Part shown: positions 9,449 through 34,318 of the stretch, piece by piece | Layout: each line of letters opens with the position of its first letter | How positions within the stretch are numbered: position 1 is the first letter of the stretch | Origin: Escherichia virus TH34 | Sequence record: MT446407.1 | Reading direction: 5' to 3' (one strand) | DNA length: 64,000 nucleotides | Made by a program: the position numbers and the translations under genes | The notes under the pieces: generated by a model | Database searches by the model: none | Told to the model about the DNA's origin: nothing | The model's input: the letters and a program-made list of their open reading frames with translations, nothing else

Positions 9449-9524
9449 GCACCCTTAGCTCAATGGATAGAGCAGCGACCTTCTAAGTCGTTGGTTACAG
9501 GTTCGAGTCCTGTAGGGTGCACCA
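9449..9524 (+). tRNA. tRNA-Arg: tRNA-Arg (anticodon UCU)
   Basis: Cloverleaf by eye: acceptor GCACCCT/AGGGTGC, D-arm GCTC-AATGGATA-GAGC, anticodon loop CUUCUAA, T-arm CAGG-TTCGAGT-CCTG, encoded CCA. Confidence 0.8.
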
Positions 9525-12963: not shown

Positions 12964-12988
12964 GGCTCTCTTAGGAGAGTCCTTTTTT
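12964..12988 (+). terminator. rho-independent terminator
   Basis: Stem GGCTCTC / GAGAGTCC then T6. Confidence 0.5.
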
Positions 12989-13546: not shown

Positions 13547-14764
13547 ATGTTCCCTGTAACACTTCAAAGCTGGAAAGAATCAGAAGACGTTGTAACCGTC
13601 TGGCCCCCTTGTTATGGTTTCCTGAAAGCAGGTTACTATCAGGGTGGTGATTATGACGAAGATGAAGATGGTGATCCTGATTACTATAATACATACGATA
13701 GTAATTTCGGCTGGAATATCCGCATCAAGGTGTGGAGTGGAAATATGATGGTTCGTCAAGGCACTGCTGAAGAGAACGTTCTTGAGAATATGTTGCCTAT
13801 GTCTGAAATCAAGTATATCTGGAACTCCGGAACACATCTTCCAGCTCACGGTGTAAGACGTTATGGTGATACTGAATATATCGCTACTCAGTATTTCCGT
13901 GAAGGGTTAGAAAATGAAGACCCTCGTCCTCCTTCTCATGTGGAAACATGGGCAGAAGAAAACAACCGTCCTGATATCACTGATCGTGTTGTTATGGAAA
14001 CCTTTGCAGCATTCATGGATAAAGACCTTGACTCATGTCTGGTATGGCATGAAGTAGGGTTCATGGGTGTTTGTACTGATGGCTGTCCCGCTGATCGTGC
14101 TCTGTTCTATCTGATGTTGAATCGCACATTCTATACAGATGATGAAAAATCTGCTGTGTATGAAATGTTGAACAAGATGTATAAGAAGGGCTGGTCTCCT
14201 TTAGCCTCTCTTGCATTCAGCCGACTGATCAACTCTTCAGTGGATGTGTTCGGTAACGAACGTGTTGCTTTAACAGGGAATGATTACGATTCCTGTATCT
14301 TCCAAGCATCTCTGTATACAGTGGGTGTTGGTAGTACGATGATTGAGCCTCGCCAGACCAAATGGCGACAGTGTGAATACACTGAAGGTGAAGGTCATCT
14401 TCGTGATGAAGACTTCTCCAGTCTGATCTATCGCGGTGAAGGTGTTCGTGATTGTCGAGTGAACAACTCGATGTTCTTGCCAATCCTTTTGCCTCAATAT
14501 TGCCATCTGTCGGAAGATACCCGCCCAATCATCACAGAAAAGTCACTCTTGGTTGAATTTATCCGAGAGGTGGCTGAATCTGAAACATCTTTTGCTAAAA
14601 TTGTGTTCGGTTATAACTGGAACAATGAAACAGCTTCAGCTCGAAGCTACAACATGTATAACATTATCAGTAGTATGTCCAATGGACTGACAGGTAGTAA
14701 TTATACAGTACGTCCCTCAGAAGAGTGGGAAAACATTTTGGAAAAATTATTCTTCAATAAATAG
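13547..14764 (+). CDS. hypothetical acidic protein (405 aa), first gene of amide-ligase cluster
   Basis: ATG 13547 with AAGAGG upstream; Asp/Glu-rich N-terminus; no motif recognised. Confidence 0.6.
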   Translation: MFPVTLQSWKESEDVVTVWPPCYGFLKAGYYQGGDYDEDEDGDPDYYNTYDSNFGWNIRIKVWSGNMMVRQGTAEENVLENMLPMSEIKYIWNSGTHLPAHGVRRYGDTEYIATQYFREGLENEDPRPPSHVETWAEENNRPDITDRVVMETFAAFMDKDLDSCLVWHEVGFMGVCTDGCPADRALFYLMLNRTFYTDDEKSAVYEMLNKMYKKGWSPLASLAFSRLINSSVDVFGNERVALTGNDYDSCIFQASLYTVGVGSTMIEPRQTKWRQCEYTEGEGHLRDEDFSSLIYRGEGVRDCRVNNSMFLPILLPQYCHLSEDTRPIITEKSLLVEFIREVAESETSFAKIVFGYNWNNETASARSYNMYNIISSMSNGLTGSNYTVRPSEEWENILEKLFFNK

Positions 14765-14772
14765 AGGCGAAT

Positions 14773-15723
14773 ATGTCAATCTCCGCATCGACTGCTCCGG
14801 TAACACCAGCAGAGAACTTTGGTGAGTCAGTGTTCAGAGGGCGAGCTTGTTTTGGTACTTTCAACTGTCAGCATATGTATTCTGTTACAGACATTAATGG
14901 CGACAGTATCAATCTCTCAAGCCTTCGTGATAGAACTTCAGAAATTGGAGTTATTAACTTCTGGCCTCACAATTTTTATGGCGTACCAGCTAAAGATATC
15001 GAAAGAGCTTTAGTTGAAGCAACAGACATTTTTAACTCAATGTCTTGCTATAAAAACATGTTCTCTGTCACTTCGGTGAACTCAGTTGCCGTGAACCTTC
15101 GAGACCACCCAGCAGACAAGGTGTTTACTGGATTAATGACCCTCCGGAGTTATCTGGATGGGGATTTTATGGGAATGGAGTTCCTTCAGGAAGGCGTTCA
15201 AGACAAGGAAGAGTTGCTCAAGCGACAACGAATCGGCTTAGCTTTACGCTTGGCTGGTTTAAGTCGTAACTTCTTTGGTCGTTGGGATTATTCACATGAT
15301 GTGGATACTGATGATGAATCAGCAGCGACCTATTTTACCGGTGAAATGAGTGCAATCGCATTCTTGCCACTGGTCTGTTCAACTGATGAATTTTCTGAAA
15401 ACGTATGGGTTCAGAATGTATTTGGTGTTGACGATAACAGAGATGGTTATGTACGAAACCATAATGACGGAGTTCTCCGCCGTATGGCTCGTCGTCGTGA
15501 CCAAGACCCTGACTATTACGAGAGTATGAGTGAGTGGTTGCGTCTCTGGTCAATGTGTGCAGGCCATAAACGTGAAGTATTAGATCAGCGTATGGACAGA
15601 ATTACTGTTCACAGTTTTATTGAACGCTTGATGCAAGCAGTACCTTCCTCAATGACACCAGAAGAAGCTGGTGCCCGTGTTGTTTCCCTTTTTGATGAAC
15701 TTGTGGAGTATTACAATGACTAA
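14773..15723 (+). CDS. hypothetical protein (316 aa), amide-ligase cluster
   Basis: ATG 14773 with AGAGG upstream; no motif recognised. Confidence 0.6.
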   Translation: MSISASTAPVTPAENFGESVFRGRACFGTFNCQHMYSVTDINGDSINLSSLRDRTSEIGVINFWPHNFYGVPAKDIERALVEATDIFNSMSCYKNMFSVTSVNSVAVNLRDHPADKVFTGLMTLRSYLDGDFMGMEFLQEGVQDKEELLKRQRIGLALRLAGLSRNFFGRWDYSHDVDTDDESAATYFTGEMSAIAFLPLVCSTDEFSENVWVQNVFGVDDNRDGYVRNHNDGVLRRMARRRDQDPDYYESMSEWLRLWSMCAGHKREVLDQRMDRITVHSFIERLMQAVPSSMTPEEAGARVVSLFDELVEYYND

Positions 15724-16522
15724 GCGTGCTTTCCTTATTGGTTCTGACCCTGAAATGTTTGTTCGTACTGCTTCTGGTGTTATCACCTCTGTGGCTGGTA
15801 AGCTGGGCTGTTCTAAAGATAACAAAATCGATCTGGCCCCTGATGTTCGTCTTCAAGAAGACAACGTTCTGGCTGAATTTGATATTAACCCACAGAAAGG
15901 GTTCGAAGCGTTTGATGATAACATCCAGCGTGGTATTGATCTGACCAACAAAGTTCTTAATGAACGTGGTATGGAAGCTGCACTTGGGATTAGTTCTCAT
16001 GTGTACACTTCTGAAGAGCTGCAATCATTCCATCCATCAGCCTTTGTGTTTGGCTGTACTCCTGATTTCAACGCCTTCACTGGTCAGAAAAACCCATCTC
16101 CGGTAGCGACAGACAAAGGTCTGCGTACTGCTGGCGGTCACGTACACCTCGGTGTTGCAGGGTCTTTGGAAGTAACTCGACAGACTCAGATGATGCTGGG
16201 TGTTCTCTGTGATTACTTCCTGTCACTTCCAGCAGTAATTATGGATAAGGACACTCGTCGTAAAGAGCTTTACGGCAAGGCATCTGCTATTCGTTATAAA
16301 GATTATGGTATTGAATACCGTTCTCTGTCGAACTTCTGGATTGGTGAACAGTCCACTCGTAAGTTTGTTTACGATCAAGTTGATAAGGTTATTCAGGGCT
16401 GTGATATGGAAATTCTCATGTCTCTGCACTCCCGTCTGCCTATCGAAAAGCTTCACAACATCATCAATAGCAATGATGTTAAAGAAGCGGATAAGTTCTC
16501 CTCTAAACTCCAGATTATCTAA
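15716..16522 (+). CDS. amidoligase-like (glutamine-synthetase-fold COOH-NH2 ligase) protein
   Basis: ATG 15716 with GGAG upstream; acidic IGSDPEMFV segment and GGHVHLG resemble the phage amidoligase family. Confidence 0.45.
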   Translation: MTKRAFLIGSDPEMFVRTASGVITSVAGKLGCSKDNKIDLAPDVRLQEDNVLAEFDINPQKGFEAFDDNIQRGIDLTNKVLNERGMEAALGISSHVYTSEELQSFHPSAFVFGCTPDFNAFTGQKNPSPVATDKGLRTAGGHVHLGVAGSLEVTRQTQMMLGVLCDYFLSLPAVIMDKDTRRKELYGKASAIRYKDYGIEYRSLSNFWIGEQSTRKFVYDQVDKVIQGCDMEILMSLHSRLPIEKLHNIINSNDVKEADKFSSKLQII

Positions 16523-16531
16523 GGTGTTATC

Positions 16532-17158
16532 GTGAGCCTGTTAAGAGATTTTCAGCATTATTATTGCGGAACATGGATTGCCCAACGTGCAGAACGAGGG
16601 ATTAATTTACCTCTTTATGTACTCAACGTGAACCAAGCAAACCGCTTTGGAGAAGATGACTTCTCTCACGAAGCAGAAATGGCCTTAACTTTTGAAGTTG
16701 AACGCTGGTCTAAGAACGCCGAAGGGCAGTTTGAACGACAGGTTGTTCAGGGCATTCCTGTGTTTGATCAAAGCCTTATTCTGGAATCTCCAGATGTGGG
16801 ATACTTACAACACGGCAACAACATGGTAAGCTGGACTCATATCAACCCTGTTCGTCAGCGAGCTAAGGGTCTGATGGGGAACAAATTACGTGGTGCACCT
16901 CCTTCAATGGGTCGTTCGATTCCGGGAGAGCTGGTGTATAATCTGTTTAATCCTGACTTCGAAGGTCTGGTTACTCGCTTCATCTACATCAACCCTGTCG
17001 ATGGTAAAGTTTATTACAAAGGGGCACTTGTAGGTCAAGTTGATCTTTCTGCTGGTTACGGCGACAATGGTCGTCAATCTTTAAATCTTCTGGAGAAGTT
17101 CAAGCATATTTCTTCAGATCTGTCATCATATAATGTAGAGTTGGTGGAAACGTTATGA
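16532..17158 (+). CDS. hypothetical protein (208 aa), amide-ligase cluster
   Basis: GTG 16532 with AAGGTG upstream. Confidence 0.5.
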   Translation: MSLLRDFQHYYCGTWIAQRAERGINLPLYVLNVNQANRFGEDDFSHEAEMALTFEVERWSKNAEGQFERQVVQGIPVFDQSLILESPDVGYLQHGNNMVSWTHINPVRQRAKGLMGNKLRGAPPSMGRSIPGELVYNLFNPDFEGLVTRFIYINPVDGKVYYKGALVGQVDLSAGYGDNGRQSLNLLEKFKHISSDLSSYNVELVETL

Positions 17159-18255
17159 CAACCGTAGCACAAGTTTTTGGATACCGTAATGCTCGTCTGG
17201 CTGAGCCGCACCCAAGCATCGCTTTTCAGTGTGGTATTGGCATCGAGCTGGAAGTTGAAGGAACCTCTGAAATTGATGCAGACCTTTGGGTTTGTACTGA
17301 AGATGGTTCACTTCGTGATGGCTGTGAGATGGTTTGTGCACGGCCTTACAACGGTGTAGAATTGCTTAGTGCTATTAACAATCTGAGTGAAGCAGTACAA
17401 GACTCTGAAGCTGAAGGGACTTGGCGCTGCTCTACTCACGTTCATATGGATATGCGTGACGCTGATAGTAACATCCTGAAGAAAGTAATTCTTGGATGGA
17501 CGTTCTATGAAAAGATGATGTTCAAATGTTCTGGATACCATCGCTATCGTAGCAACTTCTGTCCTGCCTTTGCTGTTGTTCAAGCACAGGTAATGAATGC
17601 TTCCGCAGCGTTCAACCGAGATGGTGAAGCCTTCTTCAATACTCTTGTTAATAGCTGGGACAAGTACACCTCCCTTAACCTATTACCTCTGGCTCAGTTT
17701 GGTTCTGTTGAATTTCGTATCTCAGAGCCAAAGTGGAAGAAAAGCCAACTCCTTAATCTGGTCAACCGCTTCTTAGTTCTCAAGAAACTGGCTGTTGAGT
17801 ATGCAGATTTGGATAATGAAGCATATGTTGAGAAACTGAATGAGCTACGCTTCGCTCCTATGATTCAGTATCTGCCTCTGGACTACACACCTAATGATGA
17901 TGACCTGACTGGTGGTTATCGTTTGGCTCGTGATATTCTGTTCTGTCGTGAACATTCTGTTACTCTGGTTGGTCGTGTTCGTGTACAGCAGACCGGACCT
18001 GATGGTGAAATCCTTATCAACTTGCGTGATATGGGTGACTTCTACGGTTTCTTGGGATATGTACGTGGTAATGCCAACTCTATTTATGAAGAGATCATGA
18101 CCTATTACACCCCTCAGATTGAAAACACTCGAATCGCAACGGTTCGTGAAATTCGTCACATGTTTGCTCTGATGCGTGAATCAGGTAGCAGTGATGATAA
18201 CGTCACTGGTTACATTCCAGACCATCTGGAAATGCAATTAGAACGACTGCTGTAA
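17155..18255 (+). CDS. amidoligase-like (glutamine-synthetase-fold COOH-NH2 ligase) protein, second copy
   Basis: GIGIELEVEG...EDGSLRDGCEMV...STHVHMD resembles the amidoligase family; ATGA-coupled. Confidence 0.45.
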   Translation: MTTVAQVFGYRNARLAEPHPSIAFQCGIGIELEVEGTSEIDADLWVCTEDGSLRDGCEMVCARPYNGVELLSAINNLSEAVQDSEAEGTWRCSTHVHMDMRDADSNILKKVILGWTFYEKMMFKCSGYHRYRSNFCPAFAVVQAQVMNASAAFNRDGEAFFNTLVNSWDKYTSLNLLPLAQFGSVEFRISEPKWKKSQLLNLVNRFLVLKKLAVEYADLDNEAYVEKLNELRFAPMIQYLPLDYTPNDDDLTGGYRLARDILFCREHSVTLVGRVRVQQTGPDGEILINLRDMGDFYGFLGYVRGNANSIYEEIMTYYTPQIENTRIATVREIRHMFALMRESGSSDDNVTGYIPDHLEMQLERLL

Positions 18256-18332
18256 CACAATGGGCGCTCTGATAAAGGGCGCATTTAAAGGTTAATTAGA
18301 TGAAAGGGTTTACCCTTCAGGTGGATTAGAAA

Positions 18333-20366
18333 ATTTGTGGTATCGTATTAGCTGGGGGCAACATGACCTCCACAGACTTAGACGTATTCAACCAGCTTCT
18401 GTATGCTGGAGTCTTCCGTGGTCAGCACTCAACTGGTGTGTTCGGTCAGCGTAAAGGTGATGAAAAAGTATTTTCTTATAAAGAAGCACTTCCTTCCTAT
18501 GCCTTCATGCTCCAGACAGGGTACACGAATCTTACTAAGGGGCTTACGAACTATGTAGTTCCTCCATCGTGGATTGTTGGTCATAGCCGACATGCCACAC
18601 GTGGTGCGGTCAATGCTCGAAATGCTCACCCATTCTCTCATGGTGACATTACTCTGGTTCATAATGGTACACTGTTAGATCAGGAACTGTTACCAGATCA
18701 TAAGAATTTCGAAGTTGATAGCGAAAACATCTGTCATTCAATCAACACCATCGGTGCAGCAGAGACTATCCAGAAGTTGGATGGTGCGTTCACTTTAATC
18801 TGGCATGACGCCAAAGACAATACTCTGCATATCATTCGTAACGATGAACGTCCTTTCCATCTGGCCCGTTGTGGTCTAGATTGGTTTGGTGCTTCTGAAG
18901 AAGATATGTTGATGTGGATTCTTAATCGTTCCAAGTCACACAAGAACCGTATCAATGATCACTTTGAGTGTAAAGTGGGAACTGAATACATCTTTGATTT
19001 GTCTGGCAACCGTATGACTCTGACTCAAGAGGTGGAGCACAAGCTTCCGGTTTTTACGGTAACGAGTCGCTGGGGCGGCTATTACTCGAACTCTTCTCTG
19101 TATCAGAACCAACAGACAAACAAATCAAGCAGCAGCACAAGCGACATTTACGGAAACAAAGACGACAAGCCCGGCGTGACAAGCGGAGACATTCGTCGTC
19201 GTAAAGCGATTGAAGATCAGAATAAACTGGCTGCCGATCGTGGTCTTCCGTATCGTCGTGACGGTCGTGTGGATATCATTCCTCATGAGTTCCACGCTTA
19301 TAACAACACTGACCGTGGTAAGATGGTTGGTTATATTTATGATGATGCTGCTCAAGAGTATGTTGAGGGTGATGTTCATAATGTAGCCAAGAGTGAATAC
19401 TTGAAGGCTCTCGAAAACCCAAAGGTAGTGTATCGCGGGACAGTTGCTTGTATCTCCGAAGTGGACAGTATGATTCGCCTCGTACTCACTTCAGGGCTGT
19501 TTGTTGATGCTACCGATAAGGAGCCTCAAAGCACTACCGCTGATTTTGATGATGATATCCCTTTTGATTTAGAAGACTCCTTCATCACTAAGAATGGTGT
19601 GGAAGTCACCCGTAAGTTCTGGGAATCACATTCTCATGGTGATTGTGGCGGTTGTGACAAGCATATTGAATGGAAAGATGCTAAGAAAGCTGTGTTCGCT
19701 TACCAAGCATATTGGCATCCGGCCTGTTTCGAAGCATTGTCCAAACCGTCTGAAGAAGATGAAGACATTCCTTTGGGTGTCTGTGCTGTATGTGGCAATG
19801 TTAAAACTGATTTCGAGTTTGATAACGAAATGAGTAAACTTCGTGGTGAAGATATTTGTTATGTCTGTGCCAAAGAGATCAAAGACAAAGTGACTAACAC
19901 TACATTGTCTGAAGGTTACATTTGGACTAAAGCAGTTGACACAACCAACCCACGTCGCCCTGAAGTAGCAGTTCGTGTTGATCAGCGTATGCTTAGCCGG
20001 ATGATTGTAATGGTCAGCTCAGCTAAACGTTCTGGTGACATTGAATTGTCTGATGTTCCAAATTCTTATTTGGAAAAACGTGGTGGTGATACCTATGCCA
20101 TCTCTGTTTATGGTCCAAAGAATGCCCCAAAGGAGGTGCCCGCTGAGAAAGCGGAAACATTTCCAGAAAAGCAAACAACTCTCCGAAAAACAGTTGTCAG
20201 TTACGACGGACAACGAACAGCTGAGTTCACAAAAGCCCTCTGGACTTCAATTGGGTTTTGTGCGGTCTGTTATAAACAAATTCCGTGGCGTGATGCAGAA
20301 ATTTGCTCACTGAACAAAGAAAACAGGGTGATCTGTAATTCAGATTACTGTAAAGGTAAACATTAA
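18333..20366 (+). CDS. class-II (Ntn-type) glutamine amidotransferase domain fused to Cys-rich zinc-ribbon-like C-terminal region; probable AUU start
   Basis: VGHSRHATRG..NAHPF..LVHNGTLLD matches GlmS/PurF-type GATase motifs; CGIV nucleophile lies 9 codons upstream of first ATG (18363), right after ATT 18333 and behind AGGTGGA; C-terminus has 5+ CxxC pairs. Confidence 0.5.
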   Translation: MCGIVLAGGNMTSTDLDVFNQLLYAGVFRGQHSTGVFGQRKGDEKVFSYKEALPSYAFMLQTGYTNLTKGLTNYVVPPSWIVGHSRHATRGAVNARNAHPFSHGDITLVHNGTLLDQELLPDHKNFEVDSENICHSINTIGAAETIQKLDGAFTLIWHDAKDNTLHIIRNDERPFHLARCGLDWFGASEEDMLMWILNRSKSHKNRINDHFECKVGTEYIFDLSGNRMTLTQEVEHKLPVFTVTSRWGGYYSNSSLYQNQQTNKSSSSTSDIYGNKDDKPGVTSGDIRRRKAIEDQNKLAADRGLPYRRDGRVDIIPHEFHAYNNTDRGKMVGYIYDDAAQEYVEGDVHNVAKSEYLKALENPKVVYRGTVACISEVDSMIRLVLTSGLFVDATDKEPQSTTADFDDDIPFDLEDSFITKNGVEVTRKFWESHSHGDCGGCDKHIEWKDAKKAVFAYQAYWHPACFEALSKPSEEDEDIPLGVCAVCGNVKTDFEFDNEMSKLRGEDICYVCAKEIKDKVTNTTLSEGYIWTKAVDTTNPRRPEVAVRVDQRMLSRMIVMVSSAKRSGDIELSDVPNSYLEKRGGDTYAISVYGPKNAPKEVPAEKAETFPEKQTTLRKTVVSYDGQRTAEFTKALWTSIGFCAVCYKQIPWRDAEICSLNKENRVICNSDYCKGKH

Positions 20367-20377
20367 GAGGTGAAGTT

Positions 20378-20611
20378 ATGGAAGTTCGTAAATTGATGTT
20401 GGATAACGTTGTAACCACTCGACGTATCCCAATGACAAGCACAGGATGTGATAACCTTCGAGCTATTCAGAAATGGATGCAAGAAGGTATTGGGGGACTG
20501 GTTAACTCTCCAGTTGAAATCCCTTTCCCAACCGTTATCAATAACGTGTTGGCTGACTATGTGAAATTGAAGGGGATTAAAGTTGAGCCTCATGTCAAGC
20601 AAGGGAGCTAA
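20378..20611 (+). CDS. hypothetical protein (77 aa)
   Basis: ATG 20378 with AAGAGG upstream. Confidence 0.45.
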   Translation: MEVRKLMLDNVVTTRRIPMTSTGCDNLRAIQKWMQEGIGGLVNSPVEIPFPTVINNVLADYVKLKGIKVEPHVKQGS

Positions 20612-20813
20612 GCCTCACCTGACAATGCTGGAGTATCAACAACTCCGACTTCAACAACTGGTAACGGAGCAGCGAAAGCTGTATCCGTTTGCTTTTAACC
20701 TAATTGATTCACCAAGCGATGACCAAGAAGACGAGATGTTCTCCAAGTATTGGGAAATCGAAGTTAAAATTCAATCCTGTCGTAACGAAATTCTTAAACT
20801 AAAAGGTATCTAA
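20592..20813 (+). CDS. hypothetical protein (start uncertain)
   Basis: Track ORF starts TTG 20583; first ATG at 20592. Confidence 0.35.
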   Translation: MSSKGAKPHLTMLEYQQLRLQQLVTEQRKLYPFAFNLIDSPSDDQEDEMFSKYWEIEVKIQSCRNEILKLKGI

Positions 20814-20815
20814 AA

Positions 20816-22063
20816 ATGACTACTCGTATCCGTGTTCTTCCGTATGGCCCTTCTGATTCTGTTAACGCTCTGGTAACTGCCATTAGTGATACTATCCGTG
20901 ATGAACGTATCAACGCTAACGTAATGGGTCTTCTTTCTGAGAACAGTCGCTGGCGTTCTCGTGAGGGTGATGTGGTTGTGAACTACGGGAACCGCCGCTA
21001 TCCTGAATCCTTCTTTGGTTCTGCAACTGTTCTTAACCGTACCGCAGCCTTACACATGGCAGCGAACAAACGTCGTGCTTTCAGCGTGATGGACCAAGCA
21101 GGTGTTAAAACTGTTGAGTATACAGATGTTCAAGAGATTGCTCAGGAGTGGTCAAACTCTGGCAACATTGTGTATGAACGTCATGAACTGACTGGTCACT
21201 CTGGTTCGGGTATTATTGTTGTTGAGCCTCGTGATTCAGTTGGTCAAGCTGAACTGTACACCAAAGGTATTCAAGGCCCACGTCGTGAATGGCGTGTCCA
21301 TGTGTTCAAAGGTGCAATCACCTATGTTCAGAAGAAAATTCGTCGTAATGGTTATCGTGAAGACCCTAACTATCGTGAAGATGTTCGTAACCATCACACT
21401 GGTTGGGTTTACTCAAGCTCTTTTACGGATGTTCCGAACGATGCATCTCTGATCAACGCAGTGAAGGCCGTTGAATCGATGGGTCTGGATTTTGGTGCAG
21501 TTGATATCATTACTAAAGGTCGAGAAGCATGGGTACTGGAAGTTAATACAGCACCGGGCCTGACTGGTACAACTCTGGATACCTACCGTCACAACATCCT
21601 TGAGTTTGTTAAAGCTCAAAACCCTCTCTATACTCCTCAGTATAAAGTGGTTTACCAGACTCCTGTTGAAGCTCCAATTGAAGATGGAGATGGTGAATTG
21701 GTTGCTGACAGTGAAAGTGCTGATGATGAAAACTTCGCACTGGAAGGCCAAGTCGCACAGCCGGTTGATTCAGTGGATGTAGTTCCTGAAGAAATGCAAC
21801 TGGAAGGTCAGATGAATACTCAGACAATCCGTAATGCACCTACTGGTTATGTGTTGTCTCGTGGTTACTGGATTGCAGATATTCGTCATGTTCATAACAA
21901 CCTGCAACCTAATGCAATGTCTGCCAATGTCATTCTGTTCTGCGATGGTCGTAACTTCTACCGCAGTGGCTGGAACGTTCCGGTTCATCCGCAACAAGTC
22001 CACAACCCTCGTAAGTTAGAGTCTGTAACTGTTGAAGGTAGTGAAGTGGCAGTAACTCTGTAA
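20816..22063 (+). CDS. ATP-grasp fold ligase
   Basis: LDFGAVDIITKGREAWVLEVNTAPGL is a typical ATP-grasp C-terminal motif. Confidence 0.55.
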   Translation: MTTRIRVLPYGPSDSVNALVTAISDTIRDERINANVMGLLSENSRWRSREGDVVVNYGNRRYPESFFGSATVLNRTAALHMAANKRRAFSVMDQAGVKTVEYTDVQEIAQEWSNSGNIVYERHELTGHSGSGIIVVEPRDSVGQAELYTKGIQGPRREWRVHVFKGAITYVQKKIRRNGYREDPNYREDVRNHHTGWVYSSSFTDVPNDASLINAVKAVESMGLDFGAVDIITKGREAWVLEVNTAPGLTGTTLDTYRHNILEFVKAQNPLYTPQYKVVYQTPVEAPIEDGDGELVADSESADDENFALEGQVAQPVDSVDVVPEEMQLEGQMNTQTIRNAPTGYVLSRGYWIADIRHVHNNLQPNAMSANVILFCDGRNFYRSGWNVPVHPQQVHNPRKLESVTVEGSEVAVTL

Positions 22064-22083
22064 TTAAACAAAAGGAATTTGTA

Positions 22084-22326
22084 ATGTTGTCTATCGAAGA
22101 TTTGATCAGTCGTGGAATGACCGAACAAAAAGAACCTCTGATTGTTGGTTCTCGTAAAGCTATTAACCAACTCTGTGAAGAGTTTGGAATCACAAACAAG
22201 AGAATGATTGGTAATCAGTTCTCTGCAATTGTCACCTTCCTTAAACGAGGTGATAAATATTCAATGGAATGTGTTGAGCGTATCATCGCAATTGCACAAG
22301 AAGATAAGGGAGTAACAACTCTGTGA
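22084..22326 (+). CDS. hypothetical protein (80 aa)
   Basis: ATG 22084 with AAAAGGA upstream. Confidence 0.45.
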   Translation: MLSIEDLISRGMTEQKEPLIVGSRKAINQLCEEFGITNKRMIGNQFSAIVTFLKRGDKYSMECVERIIAIAQEDKGVTTL

Positions 22327-22508
22327 ATAAATACACAATCATGTTTCGTACAGTAAACTCAGAAGGTAATATTCAATCTCTAGATATTCAAGCAGATCGC
22401 TTTGAATCACTTGGAACAAGTGTTAACTTCTTCCGAGGAGTAGAGTTGGTAGGTACATTCCAATCTGACGTGTTGACTGGTGTGATCAAACACTTCGAAG
22501 TAGAATAA
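22323..22508 (+). CDS. hypothetical protein (start GTG 22323 or ATG 22341)
   Basis: GTGA overlap with upstream stop. Confidence 0.35.
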   Translation: MNKYTIMFRTVNSEGNIQSLDIQADRFESLGTSVNFFRGVELVGTFQSDVLTGVIKHFEVE

Positions 22509-22573
22509 TTTGCTTTAGCCTCTTCGGAAGAGGGGGCTAGTTCAAATTTAACTGAAACACAAAAGGTAATATA

Positions 22574-23005
22574 ATGTCTGATAAAGTATTAGTAGCAACT
22601 TACGGCAGCTTGAGAAAAGGTCAACACAACCACGCTATCAATGCTCGTGCCGGTGGTGTGTCTATTGGTGAGGGTTGGACAGTGAACAACTGTAACCTGT
22701 ATCAGTATTGCACAGCATACTTCCCAAGTGTGTCTCTGGAGCACGACAGCAATGGCAAGCCTGTTCGTGTGGAAGTATTTGAAACAACTCAAGCTGGTTT
22801 GGAAGGTCCGTATGACGGTCTGGAAGGTTATCGTGGTAAAGACAATCCATACACTTTCTACAATCGTACACTAATTCCAGTAGTGCTGGATAGTGGTGAA
22901 ACTGTGGAAGCATGGATTTATCATATCGACGAAGAACAAGATGTTCTGGTTGAATCTGGCGACTGGACAGCGTATCTGGCAGGTGATCAGGATGACAGTA
23001 ACTGA
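22574..23005 (+). CDS. AIG2/gamma-glutamyl cyclotransferase-like protein
   Basis: N-terminal VATYGSLRKGQHNH matches the YGSL motif of the GGCT/AIG2 fold. Confidence 0.45.
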   Translation: MSDKVLVATYGSLRKGQHNHAINARAGGVSIGEGWTVNNCNLYQYCTAYFPSVSLEHDSNGKPVRVEVFETTQAGLEGPYDGLEGYRGKDNPYTFYNRTLIPVVLDSGETVEAWIYHIDEEQDVLVESGDWTAYLAGDQDDSN

Positions 23006-23234: not shown

Positions 23235-25025
23235 ATGTCAAAGATCATTTTAGGGGATACAGGTTGTAAAGAATGTATCTCTCATGGTCGTGATAAGACC
23301 CACAATCACATGATTCTCTTCCGAAACGAAGAGTCCGGTGAAGAGTGGGGCAGTTGTAATCGTTGTGGTAGTTATGAAGTTTTCGAAAAGGGAACAACTC
23401 CTACACCGAATGAAAAGAAAGAACTATCCCCTGAAGAACTCCGAGAGATCTTAGACGATTGCTTAGAGCTGCCTCAGGGTGAGCTTACTCGTCGTTTGAT
23501 TCCTAAAGCTGTCTCTGAACGGTATGAATGCCGTATTGGTTTGAGTCAGACAGATGGGCAAACTCCTGATAGTTACTTCTTCCCTCGTGAACGTGATGGA
23601 AACATTGTTGGTTATGAAGTTAAGCTTCTAGACAGCAAGAAATTCTATTACATCGGCAGTGTTAAAGAAGCTGACCTATTCGGTATGGCTCAAGCACAAC
23701 GCGGGGACGTGTACAACAAGAAGCTCTTCATCTTTGAAGACCCACTCTCTTGTATGTCTGGCTTCCATGTGCTCACTGCGTTCACGAACGCTACAAACAT
23801 CAAACCTGCGTGTGTATCTCTACCGTTTGGTGCAGGTTCAATCTCTTCCGTTCTCTCACGTAACCGTGACTTCTTGAATGGTTTTGAGGAGATTGTGCTC
23901 TGCATGGACAATGATGATGCAGGTGAGATTGCATTAACTAAAGGTCGTGCATTATATCCCCATGTTAAATTTGCTCGTATTCCGAAAGGAACCTTCACTT
24001 ACAATGGTCAAGAGAAGGAAATCAAAGATGCAAATGACATGTTACTCGCTGGTCGAGGTCAAGAGCTATTCAACAATCTGAAATATTCAGCGAAGCGGGA
24101 ATCACCTGCTGGTGCTGTTACTGTCTTTGATTGTTTAGAAGACGCTCTGAAGAAAGCGGAATGGGGTATTCCTTATCCGTGGAAAACTCTGAATGAAATG
24201 ACCTTCGGCATTCGTTGGGGAGAGATGGTTGCAATCGGTGGTGGTGTTGGTTCAGGTAAAACCTTAATCGCACACGAACTGGTAGCATGGCTTTGCCTTG
24301 AGCATGGTTTTAATGGTGGTGGCTTCTTCTTGGAAGAGAAGGTAGGCATGTCTGTTAAAAACATTGCAGGTAAATCAGCATCTGTACCTTTCCACCGACC
24401 TGATGTTGAATATGAGGAATCTCAGCTACGTGACGAAGCACTCCGTTACGCTGACAAGTTCTTCTTGTATGACAACTTCGGACAGAATGAGTGGGATGAT
24501 ATTAAGCAGTGTATTCGCTTCTGGGTAGTTGAGAATCAGTGTAAGTTTATCATTCTTGATAACATCACTGCATTAGTTTCTCACCTAACTCCATCTGAGG
24601 TGAATACAGAAATCAGTAAGATTGCTTCAGAGCTTGCTGGTATGTGTAAGGAATTAGACTTCACTGCTTTTGTATTATCTCACTTGAATGCTCCGGCAGG
24701 TGGTGCTCCTCACGAAGAAGGTGGGCAGGTGAAAGAAGTTCAGTTCACTGGTTCACGTTCACTGATGCGTTGGTGTCAGTGCATCATCGGTTTTGAGCGA
24801 GATAAGCAAGCGGATGGGTTAGGCAAGAACTTGTCAATCATACGACTTCTCAAGGAGCGTAACTACGGTCAGACAGGTGTTTGCTACACCAAGTATATCA
24901 ATGAAACAGGTCGACTTGTAGAACGAGAAGATCACGAAGTTGATGAAGCTAATCCGTTTGTCTTGACCAATGGTGAGGATGCAGCTTCTCTGCTCACACA
25001 AGACGGGGAGGCACGACCTTGGTAA
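23235..25025 (+). CDS. primase-helicase (zinc-ribbon/primase N-terminus, DnaB-type helicase C-terminus)
   Basis: Strong RBS AAGGAGG; N-terminal CxxC..CxxC; Walker [10 protein letters not shown] and Walker B IILDNI. Confidence 0.7.
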
Positions 25026-25569: not shown

Positions 25570-27006
25570 ATGATTAAGATTCCATTGTCTGAATTAAACC
25601 TTCAAGAAGGAGAAGCCCTCAGTGTAGGGCTTGACCTGATTCGTAATTTGATCAGAGATAACGTAGTCCCTGATGGTATCTATCCTGTTATTGCGGGTGG
25701 TGCTATCCGTGATACGTTCTTCCAAAATCGAACTCCGAATGACGTTGATATCTTCCTAGTTCAAGGAGGATTTCGTTGGAACACTCGTCAGGAAAACAGC
25801 CCTGCTAACGTGGGTAATGCTGCACTGTTCCTTGACAACTTCTTGTCTTGGACAGAGAGTAAAGGGCTTCAAACTACATCTCGCCTAGTTCAGCCTGTTA
25901 GTGGGACAAATTACGCTGAAGCACTTTTCACTTTCCAAGAGATTTTGGAAGTGGAGATTGACGAAGTGAAGATTCAGATGATGATTAACCTCCCTCTGGA
26001 TATGGATACTCTGAGAGGTCGCTTCCCTATGATTTGTCAAGGGTTTATGACTCTCGATGATATGTATGTGTCGAACGAAGGTATGTTTGCAATGGCATAT
26101 ACTAATGATATCCCTGTGGTGACAAGTCGTGACATGAAGTATGTCCACAAAAAGTGGCCTGAAGCAACAGTTGCAGTTTACAGCAGTTCTACTGAGTATA
26201 TGCACCTTGCAATGGGAGCTTTTGGTGAACCAGAAGTTCATCTGATCAGTGATTTAGTTGGGCCTATGGCTGGTGTAAACTTGTATCAGAATCAACGTCG
26301 CCACTACACCTTGAAGATGATGGAAACTGTATTAAATATTCCTCAGGAAGCGGGTCGTAACTATCTGGATGAAGAGGTTAACCTACAGACAGATTGGTCT
26401 AGTGAATTAACCACTATTGGTGTTGAAGCAATTACGCAGCCTTGGACTCCGGGAACTGACAGACGTGACTCTTGGCAACAGACAAGATTCGCAGCACCTG
26501 CTACAGAGGCACCTCGTGATACTTTCACTGGTAGTTTTGGTAGTGCCCGTTCTTCTGGAATGGGTACTCGTACATGGCACGTCACTCATGATACAGGTGG
26601 AGTAACTGTTCGACCTGCTTCTTCTCCATCTATGGGTGATTTGCAGCGTTCCCGTCGTTCATGGGAAACAGTTAGCTCTGTTGTTCAGGGTCTACGTTCT
26701 AGTGATATAGAACGTGTAGAAGTTGGTGATTTGCCAACCCCTACAGAAGATCGGGTAGCAGCTATAGCGGCTCGTGAAGCTGCTCGTACTGGCTTTGCAT
26801 CTTTAGCTAACGACGCTCGACCTGTTGGTCGTCGTAATGGTCTGGCTCATTCTAACACTGCACTTGGTGCAGAACTCCGAGCAACAGCTCGTGAATTAGT
26901 TGGTGAACTTGATAGTAACTTAGCAGGTGTTACGCTGACTCGTGAAACAGCTCGTAACATGATTAACAATTTGACATCATCTGTACAAGGAAACAGAAAC
27001 TCATGA
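25570..27006 (+). CDS. CCA-adding-enzyme/poly(A)-polymerase-family nucleotidyltransferase with low-complexity C-terminal half
   Basis: VIAGGAIRD...NDVDIF matches the GGxVRD...DxD head-domain motif; C-terminal ~200 aa Ser/Thr/Arg/Gly-rich. Confidence 0.5.
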   Translation: MIKIPLSELNLQEGEALSVGLDLIRNLIRDNVVPDGIYPVIAGGAIRDTFFQNRTPNDVDIFLVQGGFRWNTRQENSPANVGNAALFLDNFLSWTESKGLQTTSRLVQPVSGTNYAEALFTFQEILEVEIDEVKIQMMINLPLDMDTLRGRFPMICQGFMTLDDMYVSNEGMFAMAYTNDIPVVTSRDMKYVHKKWPEATVAVYSSSTEYMHLAMGAFGEPEVHLISDLVGPMAGVNLYQNQRRHYTLKMMETVLNIPQEAGRNYLDEEVNLQTDWSSELTTIGVEAITQPWTPGTDRRDSWQQTRFAAPATEAPRDTFTGSFGSARSSGMGTRTWHVTHDTGGVTVRPASSPSMGDLQRSRRSWETVSSVVQGLRSSDIERVEVGDLPTPTEDRVAAIAAREAARTGFASLANDARPVGRRNGLAHSNTALGAELRATARELVGELDSNLAGVTLTRETARNMINNLTSSVQGNRNS

Positions 27007-33462: not shown

Positions 33463-33474
33463 TAATGTATACTC
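33463..33474 (+). promoter_or_regulatory. TAATGTATA element (candidate phage-specific promoter)
   Basis: Exact TAATGTATA 29 nt upstream of ATG 33504; same core as 39779-39790 and minus-strand 49307-49318. Confidence 0.3.
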
Positions 33475-33503: not shown

Positions 33504-33827
33504 ATGATGACTGATAAGGCAAAACGTGATTATGCACAAGAAAGACGTACCGCAATCAAACGTGGGGAGACAGGTGTTGGTAGCAAGAGCGGAGATGCTC
33601 AGCGCCACCGTGCACGTCGCATCGTTGAAAAGCGCGATGGAAAAGCTGCTGTCCGAGGTAAAGATGTTGGACATAAACGATCAATCAAGTCGGGAGGTTC
33701 TAATGCGTCAAGTAACTTACGTGTTGAATCAGTCTCTGGAAATCGCTCGAACGGCGGCAAAAGTGGAGATCGTGCTGGAAAATCAGCAGGAGGAGTCAAA
33801 TCGAGAAAAGGCGCTCTAAGTCAATGA
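33504..33827 (+). CDS. hypothetical basic Gly/Ser/Arg-rich protein (107 aa)
   Basis: ATG 33504 with AAGGAG upstream; stop ATGA-coupled to next gene. Confidence 0.45.
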   Translation: MMTDKAKRDYAQERRTAIKRGETGVGSKSGDAQRHRARRIVEKRDGKAAVRGKDVGHKRSIKSGGSNASSNLRVESVSGNRSNGGKSGDRAGKSAGGVKSRKGALSQ

Positions 33828-34318
33828 TTCCGATTTCCGACTACTTGTCATACGACCTGGATACTGTTTTATTGATTTTTACCGAATCTAGCTCTAAAGG
33901 TAAGAAATGGAATAAATCACATCCGGGAAAAGTGGCAGGGGCTGTTGATGAAAAAGGGTATATCAGAGTTTACTTTGAAGAGAGGAGATGGAAAGCTCAC
34001 AGACTTATAGCTTCTGTGCTCATACCTAACCCTGAAAATAAACCACAAATTAACCACATCAATGGTAACAAAAGTGATAATAGGTTAGAGAACCTAGAGT
34101 GGGTCACTGGTCATGAAAATATGCAACATGCTTTTTCAACAGGTCTTAATGTTGGTAAAGAGAGGGATGCTAATGGAATGACTAAAATCAACACATTGGA
34201 TGTGGAGAAGATCAAGAGTTTATATGTTAAAGGCTCTACCACTCATGGAACAAGAGCACTAGGTAAGATGTTTGGCGTAAGTCACACAGCTATCCGACAT
34301 GCTTTAAGCTCAAGTTAA
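33824..34318 (+). CDS. HNH homing endonuclease
   Basis: HINGNKSDNRLENLEWVT HNH motif. Confidence 0.55.
   Translation: MIPISDYLSYDLDTVLLIFTESSSKGKKWNKSHPGKVAGAVDEKGYIRVYFEERRWKAHRLIASVLIPNPENKPQINHINGNKSDNRLENLEWVTGHENMQHAFSTGLNVGKERDANGMTKINTLDVEKIKSLYVKGSTTHGTRALGKMFGVSHTAIRHALSSS

Follow-up and report, generated by a model that had tools for sequence, protein, structure and literature searches.

Within 64,000 nucleotides of Escherichia virus TH34 (MT446407.1), the stretch referred to below as the window, positions 13547-23005 carry a cassette of genes, several of whose predicted products make or break amide bonds (Table 1). The source phage is by its sequence a Gordonclarkvirinae coliphage (phiEco32-like, C3 morphotype), because this region shares 99.2% identity with Escherichia virus TH42, 98% with BASEL phage Bas88 and 96% with ECBP2; its central part is about 75% identical to Kuravirus and Nieuwekanaalvirus phages. 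The cassette accounts for about 12% of a 77-kb genome. A first-pass annotation, made from the letters alone, had described a co-directional, translationally coupled cluster of seven to nine genes upstream of the replication genes. The listed genes exist at the stated positions, all genes lie on the + strand and a primase/helicase gene begins directly downstream, at 23235; the gene number was too low, as the span holds 13 open reading frames (ORFs). These are tightly packed, with gaps of 2-20 nt or overlaps of 4-20 nt at all junctions except 18255-18333 and 22508-22574.

The cassette is already catalogued: it is annotated in databases, has been discussed computationally, and has a Pfam family named after phiEco32 ('Phage phiEco32-like COOH.NH2 ligase-type 2'). 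The papers searched offer annotation-level comments or second-hand predictions, in agreement with the earlier remark that such combinations are known only from computation and have no defined product. What we add here is the grouping of the uncharacterised partner proteins into two phage-only families, the universal presence of one of them (D), the alternation of GGACT and CFG proteins with a C26 peptidase, the restriction of the cassette to viruses, the ATT start codon of its amidotransferase, and the presence of the transcription regulator gp79 within the span.

Table 1. Features of the cassette in the window (aa, amino acids; GS, glutamine synthetase)
Feature	Position	Strand	Length	Predicted product or feature	Match or basis
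Gene A	13547..14764	+	405 aa	First CFG paralog	PHROG 13063 (function unknown)
Gene B	14773..15723	+	316 aa	Second CFG paralog	
Gene C	15716..16522	+	268 aa	COOH-NH2 ligase (phiEco32-type, GS-like carboxylate-amine ligase)	PF14395, PHROG 3815
Gene D	16532..17158	+	208 aa	Non-catalytic beta-barrel (SH3/Tudor/Sm-like) protein	Predicted structure
Gene E	17155..18255	+	366 aa	Amidoligase_2, GS-like ligase with lineage-variable C-terminal extension	PF12224
Leader	18256..18332	+		Intergenic leader, two hairpins and Shine-Dalgarno AGGTGGA	Sequence, RNA folding
Gene F	18333..20366	+	677 aa	Class-II (Ntn) glutamine amidotransferase, start ATT	GATase_6
Gene G	20378..20611	+	77 aa	DUF7195 small protein	PF23825 at 1.4e-18
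Gene H	20592..20813	+	73 aa	Small ORF	PHROG 13464 (function unknown)
Gene I	20816..22063	+	415 aa	RimK-family-like ATP-grasp ligase, then acidic linker and C-terminal domain of ~70 aa	
Gene J	22084..22326	+	80 aa	Ortholog of phi32_gp79	80% identity to phi32_79
Gene K	22323..22508	+	61 aa	Small ORF restricted to Gordonclarkvirinae, position of phi32_78	
Gene L	22574..23005	+	143 aa	GGACT/AIG2-like gamma-glutamyl(amine) cyclotransferase	PF06094

Five enzyme families with conserved catalytic residues

The span contains every element of the phiEco32-type cassette, that is, a COOH-NH2 ligase, a partner of about 200 aa, an Amidoligase_2 protein, a class-II glutamine amidotransferase (GATase), an ATP-grasp ligase and, as an optional member, an AIG2 protein, collinear and in a virulent phage. 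The five amide-bond enzyme families proposed by the first-pass annotation were recovered by significant profile matches in Pfam (four of them above the cutoff), PHROG and NCBIfam, and the expected catalytic residues are at least 90% conserved across 32 to 84 homologs per family. With their catalytic signatures intact, the five enzymes look functional.

Genes C and E encode predicted ATP-dependent, amide-bond-forming carboxylate-amine ligases. Gene C exceeds the threshold of COOH-NH2_lig (PF14395; 33.5 bits, cutoff 25, E 3.5e-8) and retains the acidic, His and Arg residues of that family: D11, E13, E54, H142, H144, R193, E200 and R202 are invariant, and Q47, E48, D49, R182, K195 and N206 are likewise at least 90% conserved in 68 homologs. 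Gene E, for which tblastn finds matches in 298 phage records, exceeds that of Amidoligase_2 (PF12224; 28.5 bits, cutoff 22, E 1.7e-6) and has both the ExExE strand and the His and Arg residues, with conservation of at least 90% across 79 homologs at E31, E33, E35, D50, R54, E58, R91, H95, H97, E119, R130, N175, E186 and R188. A search of PDB sequences gave no significant match of either protein to solved ligases.

The assignment of gene I is clear for the ATP-grasp superfamily. Among 70 homologs the conserved residues are K85, G130, G132, E158, D230, E242 and N244, which include the Gly-rich loop (G130, G132) and the Mg-ATP motif D...E-x-N (D230, E242, N244). Its match to PHROG 2599 is strong (E 6e-172), and PHROG 20552 covers residues 340-409. 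Similarity to the RimK family is more distant: 20.7 against a cutoff of 21 in Pfam, marginally below, E 7e-4 against RimK structures in the PDB, and E 6e-9 (MptN) and 7e-7 (rimK_fam) in NCBIfam, where rimK_fam scores 28.8 bits for a cutoff of 143. Gene L scores 59.2 bits against GGACT (PF06094; cutoff 22.8, E 7.6e-16). It carries the YGSL motif as Y10-G11-S-L13. Conservation among 32 homologs reaches at least 90% at Y10-G11-x-L13 and at D81-x-L83-E84-G85, in which E84 is predicted to be the catalytic Glu.

The amidotransferase and its ATT start

Gene F belongs to the GATase_6/7 families by Pfam (GATase_6: 55.2 bits, cutoff 27, E 9e-15). Its N-terminal nucleophile (Ntn) domain takes up about residues 1-230; the remainder consists of a variable linker, a small domain and zinc-ribbon-like CxxC motifs. 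The oxyanion Asn-Gly pair (N111-G112) and the glutamine-binding Arg and Asp (R86, D129) are invariant or at least 90% conserved, and C2, R29, G30, R86, T89, N111, G112 and D129 are invariant in the homologs of gene F. The C-terminal region had been called Cys-rich, and this holds in so far as it carries the CxxC motifs, which are the only places where homologs align over residues ~230-677; this part has no family match in Pfam or NCBIfam. A fused acceptor or synthase domain such as those of GlmS, PurF, AsnB and GltB was not found, and the NCBIfam models glmS, purF and asnB match the N-terminal domain only, far under their cutoffs. Since gene F has no synthase domain, any ammonia that it releases must pass to a partner in trans.

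The name GlmS, given to this protein in some records, is a misnomer: gene F shares with GlmS the N-terminal Ntn glutaminase domain but has no SIS or isomerase domain at its C-terminus, and scores 34 bits against TIGR01135, whose cutoff is 418. Relatives in GenBank and RefSeq bear the labels 'COOH.NH2 ligase', 'amidoligase enzyme', 'L-glutamine-D-fructose-6-phosphate aminotransferase', 'ribosomal protein S6 glutaminyl transferase' and 'gamma-glutamyl cyclotransferase'. Among these, the names 'GlmS' and 'ribosomal protein S6 glutaminyl transferase' have spread among phage records without support, and in EP335 it is the Amidoligase_2 gene that is mislabelled 'L-glutamine-D-fructose-6-phosphate aminotransferase-like'.

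In the reading frame of gene F, a TAG stop lies two codons upstream of the ATT at 18333, and the ATG at 18363 is past the catalytic Cys. Because of this stop, and because the catalytic Cys would otherwise be lost, we place initiation at ATT 18333, where the Cys directly follows the initiator (ICGIV); as the sequence reads, gene F must start at this conserved ATT to keep its nucleophile. An Ile codon as start before Cys is found in all three Gordonclarkvirinae genera (Suseptimavirus-, Nieuwekanaalvirus- and Kuravirus-type): the codon is ATT in the window, in Bas88 and in EP335, and Bas90 likewise has the Ile-Cys start. In the remaining lineages the amidotransferase begins with ATG-TGT (MCG[IL]). 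The RefSeq record of EP335 (NC_070979, region 14056-17249) begins this coding sequence at the downstream ATG, and the annotated protein is without its Cys nucleophile.

The leader that separates genes E and F has a predicted fold of -23.4 kcal/mol (z -2.47), and its Shine-Dalgarno sequence ends 7 nt before the ATT; the 30 nt preceding the start codon are identical in Bas88 and EP335. By analogy with infC, the non-canonical start and its leader may serve regulated or low-level translation.

Partner proteins: the CFG family and protein D

Genes A, B and D had been reported to lack a recognisable motif, and searches of Pfam, NCBIfam and PDB sequences returned no match for any of them. Collinear motifs are nevertheless common to A and B, namely an N-terminal C[FY]G, PAD[KR]..L..R, WxQ and G[YH]xR. 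Invariant residues are C22-Y-G, PAD183R, R193, W273xQ and G283-H-x-R in gene A (40 homolog clusters) and C26-F27-G28, D115, R125 and Y226 in gene B. A direct hhalign comparison of A with B was not significant (E 0.19). A broad hidden Markov model (HMM) of B scores gene A at 21.4 bits, and hhalign through intermediate paralogs joins the two with a probability of 93.6% (E 2e-7); on the strength of these two results we consider A and B to be paralogs of one phage-only family, here named CFG. The family amounts to 41 clusters among 1.84 billion representatives, with one to four copies per phage. The predicted fold of gene B has no confident match. Foldseek comparison of the uncharacterised partners with viral models retrieved only uncharacterised proteins of cassette-bearing phages, including an A-position paralog in Proteus phage 3H10_20.

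Gene D is always encoded between the two GS-like ligases, in the window with overlapping or near-abutting junctions on both sides. Iterated HMM searches connect it with the inter-ligase genes of LUZ24, Privateer, LAh_6 and RIO-1, and a divergent cluster of marine phages ('D2') retains its motifs. D is a universal protein of the cassette and, according to a confident structure prediction, a non-enzymatic beta-barrel. An invariant K163-G164 forms the two-residue turn of a confidently modelled beta-hairpin, R108, K112 and G113 are invariant in a flexible basic loop, and the C-terminus is not conserved.

A conserved, virus-restricted cassette with two variants

The cassette corresponds to phi32_77-88 of phiEco32, gp14-22 of LUZ24 and gp7-14 of RIO-1, sharing both gene content and gene order with them; it has also been called a 'putative peptidoglycan modification module'. 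At the protein level, identity to phiEco32 and Kuravirus is 70-80% for the proteins compared (amidoligase, gp79), and DNA identity to TH42 and Bas88 is 98-99%. Compared with LUZ24 and RIO-1, the window has longer A, E, F and I, the additional small ORFs H, J (gp79) and K, and the ATT start of the amidotransferase. By sequence, the window carries one more copy of the phiEco32-type cassette, with nothing essential different.

This arrangement, C-D-E-F-(small ORF)-I, recurs in several phage groups that are unrelated to one another: Pseudomonas LUZ24, Proteus Privateer and Aeromonas LAh_6, the Zobellviridae RIO-1, CW02 and GP100, Kuravirus and Nieuwekanaalvirus, as well as a metagenomic phage contig of 98 kb. 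A scan with the COOH-NH2_lig profile found the cassette ligase in at least 564 IMG/VR viral contigs. We examined 73 fetched IMG/VR or reference loci in which C is followed by E: an ORF of at least 120 aa separates the two in 72 of them, F follows in 68, the ATP-grasp gene in 63 and a primase/helicase in 36. In Aeromonas LAh_6 (locus L004, 14130-17268) and in the 98-kb metagenomic contig (L010, 1-1870), the cassette adjoins genes for phosphoribosyl pyrophosphate synthetase and NAMPT (NAD salvage), not primase/helicase; the metagenomic cassette also adjoins a NUDIX gene.

The same profile gave 23 loci in the genomes of 100,044 prokaryotic species (one genome each). The longer loci show the cassette again, in many cases with primase/helicase, while the others are short fragments; we take them to be viral contigs that ended up in metagenome-assembled genomes (MAGs), or contamination, and thus uninformative for bacterial context. 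Cassette contigs were binned in MAGs of unrelated phyla (Peptococcaceae, Patescibacteria, Halobacteriales, Methanomethylovorans and others), and cassette scaffolds of about 1 kb in an isolate assembly of Herbiconiux daphne look like viral contamination. Because these 23 loci are so few and are read as viral, the COOH-NH2 ligase family appears essentially virus-restricted.

Two variants can be told apart among 62 loci with enough upstream sequence. CFG paralogs without Peptidase_C26 occur in 24 of these loci, while 28 have, at the same upstream position and without CFG, a Peptidase_C26 gene (PF07722, a class-I GATase-like gamma-glutamyl hydrolase); the two never occur together. GGACT was found in 15 of the 24 loci of the CFG type against 2 of the 28 of the C26 type. 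Both enzymes, GGACT and C26, free an amine from a gamma-glutamyl amide. Their alternation fits the view that they are alternative ways of removing a gamma-glutamyl group, and suggests that this removal is an obligatory step.

Small ORFs and transcription signals

Gene G sits just upstream of the ATP-grasp gene. It has sequence homologs in Privateer and LAh_6, a DUF7195 gene is part of the cassette of the 98-kb contig, and LUZ24, GP100 and CW02 have a small ORF at the same position. Gene H was detected only in Gordonclarkvirinae-type loci.

Gene J lies between the ATP-grasp gene and gene L. Its ortholog phi32_gp79 inhibits the sigma70 RNA polymerase, activates gp36-dependent transcription and is a middle-gene product in phiEco32 (PMC8948821). 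By orthology, gene J is the RNA-polymerase regulator gp79 embedded in the span and not a pathway enzyme, and therefore not every ORF of the span belongs to the pathway. The first-pass view of an amide-ligation module is supported for the five enzymes and does not extend to this ORF.

A terminator-like hairpin (GGCTCTC-TTAG-GAGAGTC, then a T-run) lies at 12964-12981, about 570 nt upstream of the cluster, and a sigma70-like promoter motif (TTAACT-16-TATAAT) at 22548-22575, just upstream of gene L. The gp36 promoter consensus of phiEco32, TAATGTATA, has no exact site near the cluster, and matches with at most one mismatch are at chance level; the exact copies in the window are at 33463 (+), 39779 (+), 39708 (-) and 49310 (-). 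Elsewhere in the window, a single tRNA-Arg(TCT) lies among the early genes (9449-9524) and an HNH_3 homing-endonuclease ORF in the replication module (33824-34318).

A proposed glutamate-centred pathway

Characterised relatives of the cassette families act on glutamate or gamma-glutamyl groups. This is the case of the GS-like ligases GS, GshA/GCS2, PuuA and PafA, of RimK, MptN, CofF and LysX in the RimK family, of GGACT/BtrG, and of the Peptidase_C26 enzymes PuuD and folyl-gamma-glutamyl hydrolase. For this reason we favour, with a probability of about one half, a cytoplasmic, middle-phase, ATP-dependent and glutamate-centred pathway that would install and then remove a gamma-glutamyl group on a non-DNA acceptor.

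In the order that we infer, the GS/GCS-like C and E and the RimK-like I would form up to three ATP-dependent amide bonds, at least one of which would join a gamma-glutamyl group to an amine. F would hydrolyse glutamine or a glutamine-like amide, either to supply a ligase with ammonia for amidation or to trim a gamma-glutamyl amide in an EgtC-like manner. L would finally take off the gamma-glutamyl group as 5-oxoproline and release the amine. The gamma-glutamyl intermediate inferred here would serve as a protecting or activating group, installed in order to be removed, as in butirosin synthesis (BtrJ/BtrG) or with PuuA/PuuD. D, and perhaps the DUF7195 protein, may be a non-catalytic scaffold or carrier holding the ligases or the intermediate, and the CFG proteins, with their conserved set of Cys, Asp and Arg, would have an accessory role confined to phages. 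As acceptor we consider most likely a small peptide, an amine, or a group bound to a protein or to a cell-wall precursor, and probably not DNA. Also in favour, the gp79 ortholog within the span is a middle product in phiEco32.

Several points weigh against this pathway. The RimK assignment of gene I stays under the curated Pfam and NCBIfam cutoffs, and its glutamate specificity is therefore putative. The exclusion of C26 by GGACT and by CFG may reflect the phylogeny of two clades rather than functional replacement; CW02 carries both C26 and AIG2, and GGACT was undetected in 9 of the 24 loci of the CFG type. A domain that would define the substrate was not found, the CFG fold gives no clue to activity, and our literature searches found no functional or biochemical study of the cassette. 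Finally, Gordonclarkvirinae show an unusual and unexplained resistance to restriction-modification (RM) systems (PMC11990801), which keeps a DNA-directed role alive.

Comparison with known systems

The proposed glutamate-centred pathway would have partial counterparts in cells. Like butirosin BtrJ (an ATP-grasp ligase) and BtrG (a GGCT-like cyclotransferase), the cassette combines an ATP-dependent ligase with an enzyme of AIG2/GGCT fold, which would split off gamma-glutamyl as 5-oxoproline; unlike the butirosin system, it has no acyl carrier protein or aminoglycoside genes, its ATP-grasp ligase is RimK-like, and it also includes two GS-like ligases and an Ntn amidotransferase. The resemblance to PuuA (a GS-like gamma-glutamyl-amine ligase) and PuuD of putrescine utilisation is with the C26-type sister variant, which pairs GS-like ligases with Peptidase_C26. 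The window has GGACT and CFG instead of C26 and no oxidase or dehydrogenase steps; in sequence, the similarity is at the superfamily level only. The glutathione cycle (the GCS-type ligase GshA, the ATP-grasp enzyme GshB, GGCT/ChaC) brings the same three enzyme folds together, and glutaredoxin- or thioredoxin-like genes lie near the cassette in RIO-1, some IMG/VR loci and Bas88. The cassette differs in having two ligases and an amidotransferase and no equivalog-level match to GshA or GshB; moreover, the hosts already make glutathione.

Alternative roles

The first-pass annotation had proposed three roles and omitted the published hypothesis of peptidoglycan or cell-wall peptide modification. 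According to citing papers, this hypothesis reportedly goes back to Iyer et al. 2009 and to the RIO-1 genome paper. In it, the three ligases would build an unusual peptide side chain on peptidoglycan precursors, to be amidated by the GATase and trimmed by the GGCT; a wall altered in this way would block superinfection or be readied for lysis. Ddl-like ATP-grasp ligases and amidation by the MurT/GatD GATase are established in cell-wall peptide synthesis, gene I has weak Ddl matches in NCBIfam and Pfam, and the cultured hosts encountered are all Gram-negative and hence have the same stem peptide. However, gene I matches RimK/MptN alpha-L-glutamate ligases better than it matches Ddl, and GGACT and C26 act on L-gamma-glutamyl groups while the wall contains gamma-D-Glu. 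Scans of the cassette proteins, of recurrent IMG/VR accessory clusters and of the cassette of the 98-kb contig revealed no Mur-ligase, UDP-sugar, lipid-II or D-amino-acid domain. We therefore regard a role in the cell wall as a tentative possibility.

Modification of a protein can be held only tentatively too. Glutamate-derived groups would be placed on a protein lysine or C-terminus, and the target could be D (at K163), then acting as a carrier, or a host protein such as ribosomal protein S6 or RNA polymerase. Both ligase families include enzymes that modify proteins, PafA on the GS-like side and RimK/LysX on the ATP-grasp side, epsilon-(gamma-glutamyl)-lysine is the known substrate of GGACT, and papers of the Aravind group predict that phage ATP-grasp ligases modify host proteins. 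The universal D, non-enzymatic by prediction and with its invariant Lys-Gly at the tip of a confident hairpin, would suit such a target, but K163 may be a mere binding residue. The search for a tag or carrier within the cassette was negative. Pupylation also pairs GS-like enzymes, the ligase PafA and the deamidase Dop; the cassette differs from it in having no Pup-like GGQ/E tag, no proteasome and no significant PDB ligase match. A Pup-like tag would be small and disordered with a C-terminal GGQ or GGE, and neither DUF7195 nor its positional equivalents have a conserved C-terminus. As for a LysW/LysX carrier, a small ORF does adjoin the ATP-grasp gene, but it has no conserved C-terminal Glu.

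A bolder version makes D a dedicated carrier: C, E and I would build a glutamate-derived chain on K163, the CFG proteins would be a new class of thiol enzymes, with GGACT or C26 setting the product free. We consider it rather improbable. If true, it would be a lysine-anchored, Pup/LysW-like and virus-exclusive assembly line without cellular counterpart, whose product could be what shields these phages from host defences.

Hypermodification of DNA or nucleotides, in which an amino-acid-derived group on a base would protect the genome from restriction, is unlikely, and is the least supported of the three roles first proposed. Besides the RM resistance of the subfamily, it can call on the position of the cassette next to primase/helicase in most lineages, on the 24 EcoRV and 10 EcoRI sites kept in the window, and on metagenomic contigs, some of which combine amidoligase and amidotransferase Pfam matches with thymidine-hypermodification genes (PMC8989533). 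Against it, neither the Bas88 annotation nor Pfam scans of the downstream genes showed a base-activating or base-exchange enzyme, some small ORFs being outside these scans. The thymidylate synthase is ThyX and the deaminase a standard dCTP deaminase (DCD), which does not correspond to the 5-hydroxymethyldeoxyuridine route. The LUZ24-like phage U17, described with the same module, has DNA that is cut by 11 of 16 restriction enzymes (PMC11945000), and cassette phages of many hosts were sequenced by ordinary methods. The window also shows the strong palindrome avoidance typical of phages with restriction-exposed DNA: all 64 palindromic hexamers together occur 592 times in positions 1-64000 for about 1069 expected from base composition, 13 of them are absent (BamHI, SacI, NcoI, SphI and others), CCWGG occurs 3 times, and GATC is at about half its expected count. 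The gene at 25570-27006, called 'nucleotidyltransferase' in relatives, sits between the exonuclease and dCTP deaminase genes and was invoked in the BASEL work for possible DNA modification; it has no Pfam or NCBIfam match, and its C-terminal third is of low complexity and rich in Ser, Arg, Thr and Ala.

Significance

The cassette, first noted some 15 years ago, is a core feature of several abundant groups of virulent phages (Gordonclarkvirinae, Bruynoghevirus, Zobellviridae and relatives of Privateer, 7-11 and LAh_6). The nature of its product is now an experimentally tractable question, as the BASEL phages Bas86-93 carry the cassette and grow on engineered E. coli K-12. Its solution would define the substrates of two ligase families and of two phage-only protein families, and would test the cassette as the basis of restriction resistance in Gordonclarkvirinae.

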